Origin: Promethearchaeota archaeon
GTDB lineage: Archaea; Asgardarchaeota; Lokiarchaeia; Sigyniarchaeales; SOKP01
Assembly: GCA_008080735.1 (NCBI GenBank)
Contig: SHMW01000007.1
Coordinates: 1-64,000, forward strand
DNA: 64,000 nucleotides
Reading direction: 5' to 3'
Made by a program: the position numbers and the translations under genes. Numbering within the stretch: position 1 is the stretch's first letter; the number at the start of each line of letters is the position of its first letter. Below, piece by piece: positions 23,110 to 31,298 of this stretch. The notes beneath the pieces were generated by a model. The model searched no databases. It saw nothing but the letters and a program-made list of their open reading frames with translations, and had not been told where the DNA came from.

Positions 23110-24054
23110 TTAAAACTTTTCATTGAATCCATCAAATTGGTCTATTAATAAATCGGAATCTTTTCTATATAATACATTTAGCGCATAAGCCTGATTCGAC
23201 AAATAGGTTTCTCCTAATAGTAGAGATACTCGTATATGATGGTCATTTTCACTAAATATTGGTACAATTGAATCCCATTTAGAAAAAAAGGAATAATTTT
23301 TGGTCAACTCTAAAGTTTTATCAAGAAGAACCATTTTTTTGGAATTTTTATCGATTTGAGTATCAATTAATTTCTGTTTTTGATTTTTAAAATAGGATTT
23401 TTTGAATAATTGGTATCGTATACAAGACTCTTCGTTAATGTATTTGTAAATATAATAATCAAATGGATATAATCCGGGAATATATTTGGAATTCTTGGAT
23501 AACTTGAATTTGAATATAATTTTGGATACAAATTTATTGAGAAAATATATTGAATAGAACAACACAAAGCTGGGAAATAGATAAAAAAGTAATATGAAAG
23601 GATTTAAAAACCTAAAGAAAATTGAGACAATAAGAATACCTATTGAAATGAACATTAAGAAAGGATTTACCGCTCTATCAATGAAAAAGCGATATTTCTT
23701 CTTTGAAAAAGGATACACGATTGGAATCTTTGAGGCAGTGAGAAAATCAAAGAAAATATGGAGAAAATAAAATGCAGTCCCGATAATCCAAGTAGCAATT
23801 AAATCTGCTCCCATTAGAAAAAAAAGAAATACACTAGGGAAGAATGAAATTAGAATAGCACCCACAATAGAATGAGAAACGCCTTTATGCGATAACAATT
23901 TAGAATTCCTAAATTTGGGGATTATTTCAAGAAAAACATCCAAATCAGCTAAAATTGCCATAAATACCGCGTAGTAAAAAAAAACTATATCCATTCCTTT
24001 TAACAGATAACTAGCGAATAAAATAGCAATAATAAAGTGCGAAAAAAAGTCCAT
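23110..24054 (-). CDS. Membrane-bound metal-dependent hydrolase (YdjM-like)
   Basis: MDFFSH, ADLD, HKGVSHS, HIFFD motifs. Confidence 0.8.
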   Translation of the reverse strand: MDFFSHFIIAILFASYLLKGMDIVFFYYAVFMAILADLDVFLEIIPKFRNSKLLSHKGVSHSIVGAILISFFPSVFLFFLMGADLIATWIIGTAFYFLHIFFDFLTASKIPIVYPFSKKKYRFFIDRAVNPFLMFISIGILIVSIFFRFLNPFILLFYLFPSFVLFYSIYFLNKFVSKIIFKFKLSKNSKYIPGLYPFDYYIYKYINEESCIRYQLFKKSYFKNQKQKLIDTQIDKNSKKMVLLDKTLELTKNYSFFSKWDSIVPIFSENDHHIRVSLLLGETYLSNQAYALNVLYRKDSDLLIDQFDGFNEKF

Positions 24055-24222: not shown

Positions 24223-24654
24223 TCAATATGAGATATCCCGGTCCTCTAAAAACGATTTAATTTTTTCTTCAAGTTCATCCCGTGCAGATCTAAATCGTTC
24301 AATTCTTTCTTCCTCAGAACCTTCAAATGCAGCGGGATCTTCAATATTCCAAAATAACCTCGTGCTCACTCCTGGCAGGGTGGGACATAATTTTTCAGCC
24401 TTTTGACATACGGTAATAACAATCCCGAAATGCTTCTCTCCTAAATATTGATCCAAATCTTTAGAGTAATGATCACTCATATCATATCCCTTTTCTTCCA
24501 TAACTTTTTTAGTAAGAGGATGAATTTCCTTTGGCTCAAACCCCGCGCTGAATACATTGAAATAATCTCCAGCAAGTTTGTCCAAAATCGCTTCTGCCAT
24601 CTGACTTCTTGCTTGATTATGAGTACATAAAAAAATTACACTCGGCTTTTTCAT
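24223..24654 (-). CDS. arsC: Arsenate reductase, thioredoxin-coupled LMWP family
   Basis: CTHNQARSQMAE, TVCQKAEKLCP, WNIEDP. Confidence 0.88.
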   Translation of the reverse strand: MKKPSVIFLCTHNQARSQMAEAILDKLAGDYFNVFSAGFEPKEIHPLTKKVMEEKGYDMSDHYSKDLDQYLGEKHFGIVITVCQKAEKLCPTLPGVSTRLFWNIEDPAAFEGSEEERIERFRSARDELEEKIKSFLEDRDISY

Positions 24655-24796: not shown

Positions 24797-24905
24797 TTTA
24801 TTATTAATCAAAATAATGTCCAAAGTGTTCGTGGTTTTTTCCATATCTTTTATCTAAGCTATTTTTAAATTCAGCAATGTCTAACCTTTCCCGAATCTTT
24901 TCTCA

Positions 24906-25256
24906 TCAACAACCAGGGTCAAGTTGAATATTAATGTCACTCTCTGGTATTAAGGAATAATCGGGATTTTCATGTAAAGGCATAAATTCTCTATTAGGGC
25001 CGTAGGCCATTATTCCCACATCATCATATATTTTATTGGTTTTCGGATTCCAGATTAATTGTAAATAGTTATAAATATATCCTTCGAAAATGGGGAAGAT
25101 ACAATCTTCTGGATTATTTTTTATGTATTTGTCGACTTTAGCAATGGCTTCAGCTAGATTCGCATCGTCTTTAATTTGGACATTAAAAGATTTTCCTTGA
25201 GACAACCCACTATAGGGCATGCTTATACTAATTTTGATGGTTTTAAATTCAATCAC
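24906..25256 (-). CDS. Beta-grasp/ubiquitin-like protein ending PGC, possibly extended by selenocysteine
   Basis: MoaD/SAMP-like pattern (IKISI, FNVQI, NLAEAIAKV, LIPESDINIQL); ends GGT TGT TGA TGA. Confidence 0.6.
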   Translation of the reverse strand: MIEFKTIKISISMPYSGLSQGKSFNVQIKDDANLAEAIAKVDKYIKNNPEDCIFPIFEGYIYNYLQLIWNPKTNKIYDDVGIMAYGPNREFMPLHENPDYSLIPESDINIQLDPGC

Positions 25257-25319: not shown

Positions 25320-25745
25320 CTATTTGCTTGACCATAATTTGACCTTACTTTCTATTTGGTCACGTATTTTTCTAAAAAAAGCCAATTTTTCCTCCTCGGA
25401 GCCTTCAAACGCTGCGGGGTCTTCGAAAGGCCAATGTAATTCTTCTTGTACACCCAGAATAGTGGGGCAGGATTCTTTAGCACTCGAACAAACAGTAATA
25501 ACAATATCAATATCAATTTTCTTCATTAATTCTCTTATATGCTTTGAGTTATGACCACTCCAATCGAATCCTGCCTCTTCGAGCACTTTTATAGTATATG
25601 GATGTATGGGATGCGGTTCTGTTCCTGCACTATAGGCATTATATCTATCATTTCCATATTTATTGATAAATGCTTCCGTCATTTGACTCCTGCATGAGTT
25701 CCCCGTACATACGACTACTATATTTTTTTTACCCATTTGAATCAT
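25320..25745 (-). CDS. arsC: Arsenate reductase, thioredoxin-coupled LMWP family
   Basis: CTGNSCRSQM, TVCSSAKESCP, HWPFEDP. Confidence 0.9.
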   Translation of the reverse strand: MIQMGKKNIVVVCTGNSCRSQMTEAFINKYGNDRYNAYSAGTEPHPIHPYTIKVLEEAGFDWSGHNSKHIRELMKKIDIDIVITVCSSAKESCPTILGVQEELHWPFEDPAAFEGSEEEKLAFFRKIRDQIESKVKLWSSK

Positions 25746-25776: not shown

Positions 25777-26055
25777 TTAATTTATGAATCCTCTTTCCTT
25801 TAAAATCTTGGGTAATTGTTTTTTTAAAGCATAAACTGAGGATATTTTTTTTTTTTCATCAATTATAATACATTTTTGAAATAATTTCATCTTCGCAGCT
25901 TTTTTGGAATGTAATGATTTTGTATCGTGTTCAATATATTTTATATATGGTGTAAGGACTTCAAAAACGCGATTCATAAAATTTTCCCATTCACATGCAC
26001 AAACTTGAAGCGGAACATAAATATCTACTTTAACTTTTTCATTCTGGTTTGACAT
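25777..26055 (-). CDS. Small CxC protein, possibly an ArsD/thioredoxin-like metallochaperone
   Basis: VDIYVPLQVCAC resembles the ArsD N-terminal motif; lies inside the ars operon. Confidence 0.5.
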   Translation of the reverse strand: MSNQNEKVKVDIYVPLQVCACEWENFMNRVFEVLTPYIKYIEHDTKSLHSKKAAKMKLFQKCIIIDEKKKISSVYALKKQLPKILKERGFIN

Positions 26056-26082: not shown

Positions 26083-26418
26083 TTAACAACAACATTCATT
26101 ATTATTTTTCTTCGAACGTTTTCTAGCATCCCATAAGCACCCACACCCTTTTTGTTCTTGCATTATTATCGCGTGGGTTGGACAATTTCTCTCACATGCA
26201 CTACATTCAGTACATTTTTCAGGCTCACCGATATTATATGTCCCATCGTTTTCCTCTTTTAGAAGTCCAAATGGGCATATCTCCTCACACAAACCGCAAC
26301 CGATACATTTTGAGGGATCTATAGCTATCTTTAAGTTTAAATTCTTCAAAAAACCTTCAATAACACTGCTAGAGTCACAACAGCTATTGTTTTTTTCTAA
26401 TTTTGTCATTTTTCTCAA
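26083..26418 (-). CDS. hgcB: HgcB-like 2[4Fe-4S] ferredoxin
   Basis: CIGCGLCEEICP and CTECSACERNCP, then GCGC, C-terminal CCC; directly follows the hgcA-like gene. Confidence 0.75.
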   Translation of the reverse strand: MRKMTKLEKNNSCCDSSSVIEGFLKNLNLKIAIDPSKCIGCGLCEEICPFGLLKEENDGTYNIGEPEKCTECSACERNCPTHAIIMQEQKGCGCLWDARKRSKKNNNECCC

Positions 26419-26435
26419 AACATTATAGATTCTTA

Positions 26436-28100
26436 TTATAATATTATTATACTCAAAAGGGTAAGAAATAACCCAACACAGAGTAAAATGTAATTTAATT
26501 TTTTAAATAATGGATATTCATTTCTAATTTCTCTTGGGTTTGTTGACATAGTATATCCGCTAAAAGACATTGTAGTGAAGAATCCAATCCATAGAAAAAA
26601 GATTAAATTTAGAATAACGTAGTATAACGAAAAACTAAGAAACCACGTAACTATTCCAAGGGAAATTGTATTAATAATACCAAAAAACATACTTTTTAGA
26701 ACAAAATTACGCGTAAAGTTAGAGAGAGGGTAAAGGAGAATTAATAAAAGATTTGGAAAGAGTATCCAAATTAAAAGATCGGCAGCCATCCAAGTTTTAT
26801 TGATGATATTCGCAAGATCTAGGGCAAAAAGGATAAAAAATAGAATAATTAATGGAAGAAGAAATATTTTTCTCAAAAGAAATGTCGTATGTGTTATTCC
26901 CGCAGGAATCCGATGTCGGAAAGTAAATTTGGCTCTCTTCATTTGCTTAGACTTCTTCTTTGGTTTTTTAATAAGGTATTCCTTCAAGTACCGTGACCAT
27001 ACTGGACCATATTCAATCTTAAATGGAAATATTTCTGAATGCTCTGGTAAATTGGGTTTTGAAAGCCCTCCGGCAGAAAGCTGGGGTAAAATGATAGTAT
27101 TATTGTCAGTAATATGTTTCACGCCTGTCGCTTCAACCGCTTCAAGTAATTGTTCATTACCAAAATCATCTCCTCTCGCAGCACACCAGACATTAATACC
27201 ATTAGAGTCAATACATAATATCCATGCATCAATACCTTCTAAATCTCTCATAACTTTAATAAAAGTATATGCATAATTAGCAGTTGCAATAATCGGAGAA
27301 TAATTATTTGGATTACCCGATTTATATAATCCAGGTTCAATCGGAACATTATCAACCTGACCTGTCAATAGGCATCTCCAAATTTTTAGTTGTGATGAAA
27401 TACCTTTTATTTTTGGTTTTTCTGGTTTATAATAACCCGGTTCATTCTTTTCTTCTTCAAATGATTTTTCTAATTCTATAGCTTGAATTGATCCGTGAGT
27501 CCATTTTTTTATGTCGGCTATTTTGAAACCAATCGGTTCTAAATAATCTTCAAAATACTCTAAAGGATTAGTTCTCTCAAGTTTTAATCTTCTTAATTTT
27601 TTATTATATAACCACCTTTTCACCCAGAATGGAACCTTCCAAACTCCAGAGGGAATAAACTCTGCTGCAATTATTAATCGACCATCAGATTTTAATGCTT
27701 TCCACGCATTACGAAGAAAGATTTGTTGTTCCAACGGTCTTAGTTCTGATAACATAAAGGTACTAATGATTAAATCCTGAGAATCCTCTGGAACTTTCAA
27801 ATCTTTAATTGTACCAATTTGATATAGCAAATCTATATTATCTTTTTTTGGCATATTTTTCAAAGCATAGCTAATCATCTGATAATTTTCATCAAGAGCT
27901 CTGACTTTAGCGCCTTTTAACGCAATCTTTAAAGCCAAAATCCCAGTGCCGCACCCAACTTCTAAAACAGATTGATCATATTCAATCTTTTCTAAGATCC
28001 AGTTCTGAATTTTAATATTTACTCCTTTTGTGAGATTAGTAAACTTTGAATCGTAATTTGCAGGTTCCTGCTCCAATTTTTGCATGTAAGTAACAGCCAT
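26436..28100 (-). CDS. hgcA: SAM-dependent methyltransferase fused to an HgcA-like corrinoid protein
   Basis: N-terminal VLEVGCGTG, DLIISTFMLSEL; then IEPGLYKSGNP..SPIIATANY, GINVWCAARG, IILPQLSAGG, YGPVWS; about five C-terminal TM helices. Confidence 0.8.
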   Translation of the reverse strand: MAVTYMQKLEQEPANYDSKFTNLTKGVNIKIQNWILEKIEYDQSVLEVGCGTGILALKIALKGAKVRALDENYQMISYALKNMPKKDNIDLLYQIGTIKDLKVPEDSQDLIISTFMLSELRPLEQQIFLRNAWKALKSDGRLIIAAEFIPSGVWKVPFWVKRWLYNKKLRRLKLERTNPLEYFEDYLEPIGFKIADIKKWTHGSIQAIELEKSFEEEKNEPGYYKPEKPKIKGISSQLKIWRCLLTGQVDNVPIEPGLYKSGNPNNYSPIIATANYAYTFIKVMRDLEGIDAWILCIDSNGINVWCAARGDDFGNEQLLEAVEATGVKHITDNNTIILPQLSAGGLSKPNLPEHSEIFPFKIEYGPVWSRYLKEYLIKKPKKKSKQMKRAKFTFRHRIPAGITHTTFLLRKIFLLPLIILFFILFALDLANIINKTWMAADLLIWILFPNLLLILLYPLSNFTRNFVLKSMFFGIINTISLGIVTWFLSFSLYYVILNLIFFLWIGFFTTMSFSGYTMSTNPREIRNEYPLFKKLNYILLCVGLFLTLLSIIIL

Positions 28101-28124: not shown

Positions 28125-29189
28125 TTATTTTTTATTTATCCTCCAAAAGCCTTTTCTTCCGAGGAATTTCCCTATATATACAATGGAGAGCATTATTGGA
28201 ATCTCCCAAAAAAGCCCCATAGTTGTCCCAAGGGCAGCTATGCTTCCAACCCCGTATAATCCCACTGCAGTTGCGATTGCAATTTCAAAATGCGACGATG
28301 AACCTATTATTACGCTGATTATCGCCTCCTTATAAGCGAAGCCCAGAATTTTCGTAACCATGATGTTGTATAAGACAACGATAAAAAATCCCACCAACAA
28401 GGGGATAGAAACGATGACCATTAATTGGGGATTGTTCAATAATACTTCTCCATTTAAGGAAAACAGAATAATTAATGTTGTCAATAAGGCTACGATAGAG
28501 ATCTTTCCTACAGCAGGTTTATAGGTATTTTGAAACCAACTTTCACCTTTCGATTTTATTAAAAATTTTCGTGAAAGAATGCCTATTAAAAGTGGAAGTC
28601 CAATGAAAACTATTCCAGAAATTAGAAGTTGAGTCCAATCAATAGGGATATTCTGTATTCCCGTCAATAAAGACACCATAGGTACATATCCAATTATTAT
28701 TGTAATCGTGTTTATGCTAGTTGTCAATACATTCTGTTCTTGATTTCCTTTTGCCATCCAACCCCAAACTAGGACCATCGCGGTACATGGAGAACTGGAT
28801 AAAAGAATTATTGCAACAATGAGCTGCTGATCCACTAAAAAAATGTTAGCCATTGCCAATCCGACAAATGGGGCAATTAACCAATTTGAAACTAACGTGG
28901 CGATGACGGGTTTTGGATCTCTTCCTATCTGTTTTAATTCTGAGTATTGAAAATTTAACATCGCAGGATACATCATCAAAAATAAGCAAATGCCTATAGG
29001 AATTGAGATCCCACCTATTTTGATTGATTCGATGAATTCTCCTATTCCTGAAACCACTTGAGAAAGTAAAATCCCAATGAATATACATAGAGCAACCCAC
29101 GCAGGAAGAAACTTTTCAAAATAGCCAAGTTTTTTTTCTCTTTCTTTTAGCTCTTCCTCAATAGTTACTGAATTTCTTTTTTCAGACAT
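28125..29189 (-). CDS. acr3: ACR3-family arsenite efflux transporter
   Basis: LFLMMYP, SNWLIAP, PCTAMVLVW, SSHFEIAIA, WEIPIML. Confidence 0.93.
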   Translation of the reverse strand: MSEKRNSVTIEEELKEREKKLGYFEKFLPAWVALCIFIGILLSQVVSGIGEFIESIKIGGISIPIGICLFLMMYPAMLNFQYSELKQIGRDPKPVIATLVSNWLIAPFVGLAMANIFLVDQQLIVAIILLSSSPCTAMVLVWGWMAKGNQEQNVLTTSINTITIIIGYVPMVSLLTGIQNIPIDWTQLLISGIVFIGLPLLIGILSRKFLIKSKGESWFQNTYKPAVGKISIVALLTTLIILFSLNGEVLLNNPQLMVIVSIPLLVGFFIVVLYNIMVTKILGFAYKEAIISVIIGSSSHFEIAIATAVGLYGVGSIAALGTTMGLFWEIPIMLSIVYIGKFLGRKGFWRINKK

Positions 29190-29408: not shown

Positions 29409-30194
29409 TTATTCTAAATGAGAATGTGGAGATCCGAGAGGAACCAATGTATAATCGCCTCCAGATTCAAGTAAACCTTTTTTAAGGAGTTCTTCACAGA
29501 AGGGATTACCATAAAGATTTATATACAAATTTTTATTATGAATATAAGGGAGGATATCATCAGGGTTTGCGAGGAGATTACTTGAGAGTTCGACGGTGAG
29601 AAGATTTGGATGGCTAGTAAGATCGGGAAGCCGAGTTATTTGATTATTGAAGAGTAAAAGCTCATATAAATCAGGGAGAGAATAAATTTCACGAATTTTA
29701 TCTATCTTATTACAATTTATAGAGAGAGATCTTAGCTTTTTCAGTTTTTCAAGTCCTTCCATTTTAATAATATTATTCCAACCTAATGAAAGTCCTTCTA
29801 AATTTATATTTTTTTCTAACCCTTGAATAGTTCTAACTTGATTTAATTGGAGGGATAATCTTTTCAGTTTTGTTAGATTTTCGAGTCCTTTAATTTTAGA
29901 GATCTTATTTCTTCCTAAATTAAGAACTACAAGATTTTTGAGATGATTGATTCCTTTAATCTCACTGATTTGATTGTTACATAAACTTAGATATCTTAAG
30001 TTAGAAAGATATTTAATTCCTTGGATTTTAGATAACTTGCATCCAGAAATATCAATTCTTTTTAATTCAGTTAGACTTTCAAGCCCTTTTATTTCTGTAA
30101 TATCTTTAAGTGTCGGAGAATTATTTATTATTAGTGAATTATTGCTAACATAGAATTTTTGACCATCAAACTCTACACACTGATTTTCTGTCAT
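29409..30194 (-). CDS. Leucine-rich repeat protein
   Basis: 22-aa LxxLxLxxNxIxxIxGL repeats. Confidence 0.92.
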   Translation of the reverse strand: MTENQCVEFDGQKFYVSNNSLIINNSPTLKDITEIKGLESLTELKRIDISGCKLSKIQGIKYLSNLRYLSLCNNQISEIKGINHLKNLVVLNLGRNKISKIKGLENLTKLKRLSLQLNQVRTIQGLEKNINLEGLSLGWNNIIKMEGLEKLKKLRSLSINCNKIDKIREIYSLPDLYELLLFNNQITRLPDLTSHPNLLTVELSSNLLANPDDILPYIHNKNLYINLYGNPFCEELLKKGLLESGGDYTLVPLGSPHSHLE

Positions 30195-30299
30195 TTTATA
30201 TTAAAAGAAAGAAAAATGTGTATTTAAAAATACTCTCTGTGGAATTTTTTAATTTATGATTGCTCGATTATATTGAATAATCAGAAAAAAAATCTCTGT

Positions 30300-30743
30300 T
30301 TAATTCTTAATTATAGAGACCCCACCATAAATTGCTGCATAGGTGCCTAAAAAGGACATAATTTGCATTAATGTCGCTATCGCCATTAAACTCATAAATT
30401 TAATAATCGTTTGCTGAGAAGGTTCAACTTTTTTTATGTCTTTACATTCATATCCTCCTACTTTAGAAATCACCCAGTTCATCGAGGCAGCACAGCAATC
30501 AATCGCATTATTTAAATTATATTCCAAAGTGTTGAAAAATTTATATTGGGGAGAGTTAGGATTTGTCCAATGTTCTCTCCATCCATCTTTTGTTGTAGCA
30601 GCCGAAAAGAAAGTGTCACGAGCAACCTTAAATGTTAGAGTCTCTGGATTCCAAAATTTAGTATTTAATAGATTAGGTAATATTTTTTGAGAAGGAATAT
30701 TAGCGAAAAAGTATAAAAATCGAAAATTTGTGATATTCTTCTT
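30300..30743 (-). pseudogene. Probable 5'-disrupted gene
   Basis: The frame of the 75-aa ORF stays open back to 30743 (about 147 codons) with no ATG/GTG/TTG before 30527; ATGATG at 30808-30813 is in another frame and stops after a few codons. Confidence 0.4.
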
Positions 30744-30908: not shown

Positions 30909-31298
30909 GTGATGAATACTTTAGAGAGTTGCGTGGATATGGAGGGTGTTAATATGGTCCAATATTTTAATGAATTGAGGGAATTAGGAAAATCTATTCA
31001 AAAAAATAAAAAGTTTAGAGAAGTCTTGGACTTCTGCAACACTCTGGGCAATGAAGAACGTTTAAAAATCGTTGAGAGTCTTAAAAAGCAAGACCATTGT
31101 GTATGCGAATTAGAGGTTATTTTAGACAAATCTCAACCAACCATTTCCCATCACTTACGGGAACTGGAAAAGATTGGACTCATACGAGGCTGGAAAAAAG
31201 GAAAATTTACTCATTATGATATTGTTGATGAGAAAATGGAGCATTATATAAGTTTATTGACATCACGTTTTAAAGAGAAGGGAAAATCCTCTAATTAA
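30909..31298 (+). CDS. arsR: ArsR/SmtB-family transcriptional repressor
   Basis: LGNEERLKI, HCVCEL (As-binding-type box), SQPTISHHLREL. Confidence 0.9.
   Translation: MMNTLESCVDMEGVNMVQYFNELRELGKSIQKNKKFREVLDFCNTLGNEERLKIVESLKKQDHCVCELEVILDKSQPTISHHLRELEKIGLIRGWKKGKFTHYDIVDEKMEHYISLLTSRFKEKGKSSN

Follow-up and report, generated by a model that had tools for sequence, protein, structure and literature searches.

The window analysed here, a 64,000-nucleotide stretch of contig SHMW01000007.1 from a Promethearchaeota archaeon (assembly GCA_008080735.1), contains on its minus strand a gene in which a methyltransferase dependent on S-adenosylmethionine (SAM) is fused to a membrane-anchored corrinoid protein resembling HgcA, the corrinoid protein of mercury methylation. 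An earlier note, made by a model from the letters of this DNA, had drawn attention to the gene as a fusion with a variant cap helix. The fusion gene and its parts are listed below.

26436..28100, minus strand: CpaM~HgcA-like fusion gene (the tilde denotes fusion), 554 amino acids (aa); open reading frame (ORF), Pfam, NCBIfam, homologue searches, AlphaFold2 (AF2) model
27456..28100, minus strand: CpaM-type class I SAM methyltransferase (MT) domain, residues 1–215; NCBIfam, conserved residues, MT tree
26931..27365, minus strand: HgcA-like corrinoid-binding domain, about residues 246–390; Pfam, NCBIfam, structure and sequence matches
27159..27200, minus strand: cap helix GINVWCAARGDDFG, with Cys306 and with Arg-Gly in place of the canonical Gly-Lys; translation, alignments
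26442..26921, minus strand: five-helix transmembrane (TM) domain, residues 394–553; AF2 model, structure and sequence matches

The gene consisted of a single uninterrupted ORF with an ATG start and no internal stop. The ORF, the Pfam and NCBIfam matches and the AF2 model bore out the architecture proposed in the earlier note, namely a class I MT domain in frame with an HgcA-type corrinoid domain and a TM anchor. Pfam assigned residues 42–146 to Methyltransf_25 (E 2.5e-13) and residues 240–343 to CdhD (E 2.2e-13). Among the NCBIfam methyltransferase families, CpaM (NF043040, 'corrinoid protein-associated methyltransferase') scored highest for the MT domain, covering residues 4–211 and profile positions 3–215 of 216 (E 4.6e-41; 140.6–143.6 bits, below the cut-off of 180). 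The HgcA_corrinoid profile (NF040863) matched residues 248–550 (E 1.5e-49; 168.9–170.6 bits, cut-off of 275 not reached), and the HgcAB_like profile (NF043039) gave 168.4 bits over profile positions 12–270 only, likewise short of its cut-off of 285. The full-length AF2 model, built with 58 homologues, had a mean pLDDT of 89.9, five long helices at residues 394–553 and a pTM of 0.84, which suggests fixed inter-domain packing. Its top match in the PDB library (Foldseek) was the integrative HgcAB model 9a0b_A (E 4.4e-13; TM-score of 0.66 on the target), and its N-terminal part matched generic Rossmann-fold methyltransferases. The corrinoid and TM part was 33% identical to a canonical HgcA representative over 288 aa, TM domain included.

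The SAM-binding residues of the MT domain (G49xG51xG53, D70, E119 and E147) were invariant among 58–130 fusions, as was Cys306 in the sequence GINVWC, the presumed lower axial ligand of cobalt. The variant cap helix described earlier was recovered exactly, positions 27159–27200 of the minus strand translating to GINVWCAARGDDFG. The motif reads NVWCAARG against the canonical N(V/I)WCA(A/G)GK, with the cysteine kept and the lysine gone, and R309 was at least 90% conserved in the fusion family. The N-terminal YMQKLEQEPANYD fitted the invariant CpaM signature (M6, L9, E10, P13 and Y16). The resemblance of the N-terminus to CpaM, which the earlier note had pointed out, was thus supported by the signature residues, by the rank of NF043040 and by the nesting of the domain among stand-alone CpaMs (see below).

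A word-indexed protein search returned 607 proteins. The best 120 of these were nearly all 545–578 aa long (one was a 485-aa partial), 56–77% identical to the query and of the same architecture, and the names among them were Promethearchaeota, Lokiarchaeota, Hermod-, Hod- and Heimdallarchaeota. One exact-sequence record of the fusion was a Thorarchaeote. Among 400 species genomes of the phylum, the fusion occurred in 107 of the 134 belonging to the window's family (f1), and two further families contained full-length matches at 31–36% identity. It was also encoded by the cultured Promethearchaeum syntrophicum (WP_147664869.1/QEE17993.1, closed 4.32-Mb contig) and by Ca. Lokiarchaeum (UYP44054.1, 6.04-Mb contig). 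These records carry the misleading names 'Acetyl-CoA decarbonylase/synthase complex subunit gamma', 'methyltransferase domain-containing protein' and 'Ubiquinone biosynthesis O-methyltransferase, mitochondrial'; some Hodarchaeales copies are already labelled CpaM in databases. An assembly or gene-calling artefact merging two neighbouring genes, a possibility raised by the earlier note, is practically excluded, because the same architecture, 545–597 aa long and with a conserved linker between the MT and corrinoid domains, recurs as a continuous ORF across hundreds of independent assemblies (more than 600 proteins), closed genomes of cultured strains among them.

Relationship to HgcA and to the CpaM system

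The corrinoid and TM part was searched exhaustively with HMMER against cluster representatives at 50% identity, and the best 150 of the 917 hits were sorted by architecture. Within these 150, the proteins of 330–370 aa carried the canonical HgcA cap, NVWCAAGKGTFGT(D/E)EL. The cap lysine was absent from all proteins with an N-terminal methyltransferase (524–576 aa) or a C-terminal ferredoxin, in which the cap read ARG(G/D/N)(D/E/N)FGN in the Asgard group and GGGHFT, TGGHFT or similar in the others. A corrinoid-domain tree was rooted on the CdhE-like protein of the same genome and, like the other tree presented here, was a quick single-model search. Canonical HgcA formed one clade in it (Shimodaira–Hasegawa-like approximate likelihood ratio test, SH-aLRT, 100; stem 0.82) that left out the query, which sat instead among methyltransferase fusions forming their own clade (SH-aLRT 96). 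HgcAB-like proteins with a C-terminal fusion grouped with other methyltransferase fusions. This was consistent with Lin et al. (2023), in whose tree Asgard sequences belong to a 'fused-HgcAB' subtree; a methyltransferase domain is not mentioned there, and the first 327 columns, which were poorly aligned, had been trimmed off (PMC10083202).

Grouping of the corrinoid domain with CdhD/CdhE, the other outcome that the earlier note had considered fatal to its proposal, was rejected: NF003195 gave 59.9 bits against a cut-off of 306, over about 95 residues only and with no full-length match. The corrinoid iron-sulfur protein of the Wood-Ljungdahl pathway (CFeSP, CdhD-CdhE) has a homologous corrinoid-binding fold (2h9a_A, E 1.7e-6, residues 250–340; Pfam CdhD) but, unlike the query, has no cap Cys ligand, no TM domain and no methyltransferase fusion, and the CdhE-like gene of this genome is a separate one on contig 32. 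Judged from its sequence, the fusion is a relative of HgcA that belongs neither to CdhD/E nor to the canonical mercury-methylating clade, and it falls within the 'CpaM + HgcAB-like' paralogue group.

The gene order of this group was examined at 80 loci, from Bathyarchaeota, Heimdallarchaeota and many bacterial phyla, that a scan of GTDB species genomes with aligned HgcAB-like fusions had retrieved. Of the 80, 68 had CpaM-like sequence upstream on the same strand, as a gene or as a domain, in 67 cases within about 300 nt. Ten of the 12 loci lacking CpaM had a GK cap helix (six of these with a short separate hgcB) and two gave no cap-helix ORF; CpaM was found at none of the ten canonical 'GK' HgcA loci. 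Neighbour clustering recovered only TetR as a recurrent neighbour in the 80 loci. The order methyltransferase, HgcA-like protein, HgcB-like ferredoxin (MT-A-B) was constant in all loci and only the fusion point moved. Most bacteria had a separate MT followed by A~B, and MT~A followed by a separate B was found in Asgard archaea, in six Anaerolineae/Chloroflexota metagenome-assembled genomes (MAGs; same reading frame) and in one Abyssubacteria protein. MT~A thus occurs beyond the Asgard archaea: the Anaerolineae/Chloroflexota MAGs have CpaM~HgcA-like fusions of their own. These (L098, L101, L114, L121, L129 and L132) were 537–569 aa long with the cap NVWCAAGGG[YF]FT, and HgcB-like sequence followed in four of the six (L114, L121, L129 and L132). 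A candidate MT~A~B triple fusion was present in a Desulfobacteraceae MAG as a 591-aa ORF in one frame (L065:152-1927, plus strand, on a 2.7-kb contig); another apparent case, in L123, was dropped as an over-extended ORF on a high-GC contig.

In the MT tree the fused domains nested inside the stand-alone CpaMs, 16 of 17 of them in one clade (SH-aLRT 94), a pattern compatible with one or few fusion events. The only short stand-alone relatives of the MT domain that were found were contig-end fragments of the fusion and one possible 217-aa protein (P0138). Co-folding of a stand-alone CpaM with its HgcAB-like neighbour lent weak support to their association: ipSAE was 0.36 (best control, 0.00), the runs shared at least 40% of contacts and partner pLDDT was at least 74. 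Of 80 solved complexes in the benchmark, 58 reached this mark, but only 7 did so at 0.60 or below; of 110 mismatches, 2 reached it, both at 0.60 or below.

The closest system to the fusion and its neighbouring ferredoxin is the pair of CpaM (NF043040, a hypothetical equivalog) and the HgcAB-like fusion protein (NF043039). The NF043039 'fused HgcAB' paralogues, among them those of Pyrococcus furiosus, Methanococcoides methylutens and Kosmotoga, have served as outgroups in the mercury literature. The two systems share their three modules and the order of these (SAM methyltransferase, Cys-cap corrinoid protein with TM domain, 2x[4Fe-4S] ferredoxin), and both lack the cap lysine; the MT domain of the query nests in CpaM and its corrinoid domain groups with non-canonical sequences. 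They differ in that CpaM is here fused in frame rather than encoded by an upstream gene, so that the query has MT~A and a separate B where the reference has a separate MT and A~B, and in that the query stays below the profile cut-offs (140.6 of 180 and 168.4 of 285 bits). The Asgard ferredoxin, moreover, keeps a GCGC motif and a Cys-pair tail that are missing in most fused forms, and the Asgard pair lies within ars operons. That CpaM is associated with the corrinoid protein was evidently known to NCBI curators, because the family name states it. No paper describing this association or the MT~A fusion was found in the searchable literature, and Haft's selenoprotein preprint did not describe CpaM or HgcAB-like proteins. 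The CpaM + HgcAB-like system is thus already in curated databases, and the MT~A form, its cap helix and its ars residence make up a variant that we did not find described in the searchable literature.

The idea put forward in the earlier note, that the fusion points in Rosetta-stone fashion to the enzyme that loads or unloads the methyl group, held for the paralogue system, where identification of a functional partner is well supported by the fused or upstream CpaM in 68 of 80 loci and the constant order MT-A-B. It did not extend to canonical HgcAB: the fusion tells nothing direct about loading there, because GK loci are without CpaM and purified HgcAB takes the methyl group directly from SAM without a partner protein (PMC11588087). 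Of the two directions, only loading fits a class I SAM methyltransferase.

The partner ferredoxin and the ars operon

The fusion gene lay within a compact cluster of genes related to arsenic, the members of which were as follows.

28125..29189, minus strand: ACR3 arsenite efflux permease, 24 nt upstream of the fusion and on the same strand; Pfam, related loci
26083..26418, minus strand: HgcB-like 2x[4Fe-4S] ferredoxin, containing GCGCLW and ending in CCC; Pfam, NCBIfam, orthologue alignment
25777..26055, minus strand: 92-aa CxC protein (p92, VCACEW), probably thioredoxin-like; conserved directly after the HgcB-like gene
25320..25745, minus strand: ArsC, arsenate reductase of the low-molecular-weight (LMW) phosphatase type, copy 1; Pfam
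24804..25256, minus strand: small protein, N-terminal part conserved at the same operon position in relatives; related loci
24223..24654, minus strand: ArsC, LMW-phosphatase type, copy 2; Pfam
30909..31298, plus strand: ArsR repressor with an HCVCELEVIL arsenite-type Cys site, divergent from the operon; Pfam, site alignment

On the minus strand the order was acr3, fusion, hgcB-like gene, p92, arsC, small protein (24804-25256) and arsC, with intergenic gaps of 17–31 nt from acr3 to the first arsC. This operon setting, which did not figure in the earlier note, is the most informative feature of the fusion and ferredoxin pair. The comparison took in 29 more species of the family, with the 1.5 kb flanking the fusion on either side, and a wider set of 20 Asgard loci with 8-kb flanks. 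ACR3 was near the fusion in 23 of the 29 species, and ACR3 or ArsR in 28. Within the wider set, eight of nine f1 loci had the ars link, as did the two f3 genomes, those of P. syntrophicum and Ca. Lokiarchaeum. All 11 ArsRs beside the fusion carried the CVCE(L/I) site of the As(III) type, including those of two loci without acr3 and of one Thorarchaeote. At one CpaM + HgcAB-like locus outside the Asgard archaea, that of a Victivallaceae genome (L104), acr3, two arsC and arsR were also present. Links between hgcAB and ars genes have been published for canonical methylators (PMC7438021; bioRxiv 10.1101/2022.10.17.512643), and ArsR-family regulators of hgcAB respond to As and to S-adenosylhomocysteine (SAH; 10.1101/2022.10.17.512643).

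The ferredoxin scored 55.9 bits with the HgcB hidden Markov model (HMM; cut-off of 99 not reached). Its gene followed the fusion directly in 20 of 20 Asgard loci and in 24 of 24, the latter being loci with enough downstream sequence. The 20 orthologues all contained two CX2CX2CX3CP motifs, an invariant GCGC(L/I/V)W at the position occupied by GVGCA in canonical HgcB, and a C-terminal CC or CxC. The GCGC motif and the Cys-pair tail are equivalents of C73, C94 and C95 of HgcB, which are needed for mercury methylation in ND132 (as summarised in PMC11588087). The listed TTG start of the HgcB-like gene (26418) is probably wrong, as the orthologues align from an ATG at 26409, three codons on (MTKLEKNN...), which gives a protein of 108 aa.

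At 21 of 24 close loci the gene for p92 immediately followed the HgcB-like one. The protein had no Pfam match; a Thioredoxin_3-like fold (Atlas score 0.90) is a lead only, and p92 is a candidate metalloid chaperone or redox partner. Some orthologues have Cys-rich N-terminal extensions (SCCTQSTSCCGS). The N-terminal 116 aa of the small protein at 24804-25256 were kept at the same operon position in 17 of the 29 and 5 of the 20 relatives.

No ArsM scored above its cut-off in this 93%-complete genome. Across the 400 Asgard genomes, ArsM and the fusion occurred in 48 and 107 of the 134 f1 genomes, respectively, and in none and all of the six genomes of genus g1. The two are neither strictly alternative nor dependent, because ArsM is present in 48 of the 134 family genomes, sometimes beside the fusion. 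In genome G170 an ArsM-like methyltransferase of 293 aa (N-terminal SSSSCCAP) was encoded between acr3 and the fusion (L043:7079-7960), and in G145 ArsM lay about 0.9 kb from the fusion; with such placements, ArsM and the corrinoid system can share one operon.

Several variations of the operon were recorded. In the closest relative, of the same genus (G277, 74% identity), acr3 was reduced to a 28-aa remnant upstream of the fusion (L041:9692-9775), and arsR, the fusion, the hgcB-like gene, p92 and arsC were intact. At two Lokiarchaeial loci without acr3, a gene for a reductase of flavin mononucleotide (FMN) that is NADPH-dependent (PF03358, the family that contains ArsH) lay directly upstream of the fusion (L044:9710-10279, and a fam-15 gene in L048). 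In the window, genes for a 261-aa leucine-rich-repeat protein and a 75-aa ORF (29409-30527, minus strand) separated acr3 from arsR; they look like an insertion, because arsR is directly divergent from acr3 in most relatives. A 314-aa membrane protein of the YdjM family (23110-24054, minus strand) was found downstream of the ars/hgc-like cluster in 5 of the 20 loci.

Possible chemistry and substrate

What the HgcA family does in nature has long been in question, and mercury methylation gives the cell no known benefit. In the fusion, the corrinoid protein is linked covalently to a dedicated SAM methyltransferase; together with the shifted fusion points elsewhere, this defines a three-module machine. 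The fusion gene would supply the first two modules of this membrane-anchored, SAM-fed corrinoid methyl-transfer machine, a paralogue of HgcAB. The HgcB-like ferredoxin encoded next to it would reduce the cobalamin of the HgcA-like domain from Co(II) to Co(I); the fused CpaM domain would then bind SAM and convert Co(I) to CH3-Co(III), with Cys306 as the lower ligand; and the methyl group would finally pass to a thiophilic metal(loid) held on vicinal cysteines that the ferredoxin has in its GCGC motif and in the CCC at its C-terminus. The methylation of arsenite by methylcobalamin and thiols is established non-enzymatic chemistry. SAM has been identified as the direct methyl donor of HgcAB (PMC11588087). 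Because the pair belongs to this operon and the repressor is of the arsenite type, the leading substrate candidate in Lokiarchaeia is As(III) or Sb(III). We therefore narrowly favour the reading of fusion and ferredoxin as a SAM-fed, Cys-ligated corrinoid methylase, the substrate of which would most probably be As(III)/Sb(III) in that lineage. With the machine located inside arsenite-regulated operons of the cultured P. syntrophicum and of Ca. Lokiarchaeum, the hypothesis of B12-dependent As/Sb methylation is directly testable.

Several observations weigh against this reading. The ars context was limited to the Lokiarchaeia-like families f1 and f3 and to scattered cases (L058, L104). It was absent from f2, f4, f16 and most of f31, where the neighbours were FMN/flavin reductases, glutaredoxin with ferredoxin-thioredoxin reductase (FTR), nitroreductase and others, and about 65 bacterial CpaM + HgcAB-like loci as well as the more distant Asgard fusions had no ars genes. 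The whole family may act on something else, with arsenic a lineage-specific recruitment. The fused bacterial A~B proteins were mostly without the C-terminal Cys pair, and the location of ArsM in the same operon in some genomes (L043/G170, G145) counters a simple redundancy with ArsM. Corrinoid supply is a further point, as CobS (PF02654) was not found in this 93%-complete genome; the genome needs corrinoids, because it encodes the CdhE-like corrinoid protein on contig 32, but may scavenge them.

The alternative that survives best, although we consider it unlikely, is a SAM-fed corrinoid methyl-transfer or Co(I) system that acts on something other than a metalloid, for instance a C1 compound (organic or halogenated) or a housekeeping acceptor; the ars link would then reflect co-regulation or hitch-hiking in gene order. 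Most bacterial and distant Asgard CpaM + HgcAB-like loci, with no ars neighbours and with contexts that include FMN reductases, nitroreductase, glutaredoxin/FTR and TetR, would agree with it, as would the SAH response of the ArsR-family hgcAB regulators (10.1101/2022.10.17.512643) and a 2026 preprint on halomethane dechlorination by HgcAB (10.64898/2026.04.26.720869). Mere hitch-hiking is harder to reconcile with a pair that, in dozens of species, is enclosed by the ars operon, acr3 on one side and arsC on the other with the short gaps given above, and that adjoins ArsRs with the arsenite-type CVC site. The Asgard ferredoxin and the two small downstream proteins, moreover, are rich in vicinal Cys/Sec (selenocysteine), which fits the handling of a soft metal(loid). 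If the substrate is indeed As(III)/Sb(III), the system could represent a second, ArsM-independent and cobalamin-dependent arsenite/antimonite methyltransferase, with ArsR-controlled metalloid methylation ancestral in the HgcA family and mercury methylation a side-reaction of a descendant from which the dedicated SAM methyltransferase was lost. We put this wider proposal forward tentatively, with the balance on the side of doubt.

It is improbable that the fusion is a divergent but genuine mercury methylase, that is, a functional HgcAB orthologue in which the fused MT only speeds SAM-dependent loading. The fusion does share with canonical HgcA/HgcB (NF040863/NF040864; Pseudodesulfovibrio mercurii ND132) the NVWC cap with its Co-ligand Cys, the five TM helices (9a0b_A, TM-score 0.66), an HgcA HMM match at E 1.5e-49, a partner ferredoxin with the C73 equivalent and a terminal Cys pair, and SAM as the ultimate methyl source; frequent ArsR/acr3/arsC neighbours are known from some canonical methylators too. 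Unlike canonical HgcA, however, it has an extra N-terminal MT domain and RG(D/G/N) in the cap in place of GKGT. It scores 168.9 of the required 275 bits and stands outside a canonical clade that is set off by a branch of 0.82 (SH-aLRT 100) and has CpaM at 0 of 10 loci. The cap-helix lysine is absent in all CpaM-linked proteins, and the operon context is one of arsenic, with no mer genes. The sole non-canonical relative assayed for mercury methylation was negative (cited in PMC10083202).

The same comparison bears on surveys of mercury methylators. The earlier note expected the variant motif to be missed by strict screens, and a GK motif filter and the 275-bit cut-off do reject it; published loose filters, by contrast, ask only for N(V/I)WCA(A/G) (PMC12484752) and accept it, so that short-motif surveys would list the fusion as hgcA. 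Over-calling is the greater risk, since filters ending at N(V/I)WCA(A/G) will assign these Asgard genes, which are abundant in marine sediment, to mercury methylators. Across the 80 loci, the paralogues were set apart cleanly from canonical HgcA by having CpaM, as a gene or as a domain, and by lacking the cap lysine.

Very unlikely, finally, is an independent action of the two halves, in which the MT domain would act like ArsM, itself methylating arsenite (or a different acceptor), and the other half, the HgcA-like one, would carry out separate Co(I) chemistry, for instance the anaerobic demethylation of methylarsenicals, for which we know of no enzyme. The fusion resembles ArsM in the class I SAM methyltransferase fold, in its residence in ars operons and in the proposed product class, methylarsenicals, and the ArsM and TehB HMMs gave weak hits to the MT domain (35.8 and 29.3 bits, respectively). 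The ArsM profile (NF008823) has a cut-off of 263 bits, however, and ArsM itself is absent from this genome and adjoins the fusion in some relatives. The single Cys of the MT domain lies inside GCGTG, and direct ArsM-like binding of arsenite was rejected because the domain has no As(III)-binding cysteines of the ArsM type; in the favoured reading the methyl group would instead travel via cobalamin. The MT domain belongs to the CpaM clade, the only constant partner of which is an HgcA-like protein, and the pTM of 0.84 suggests that the two halves of the fusion form one packed unit.

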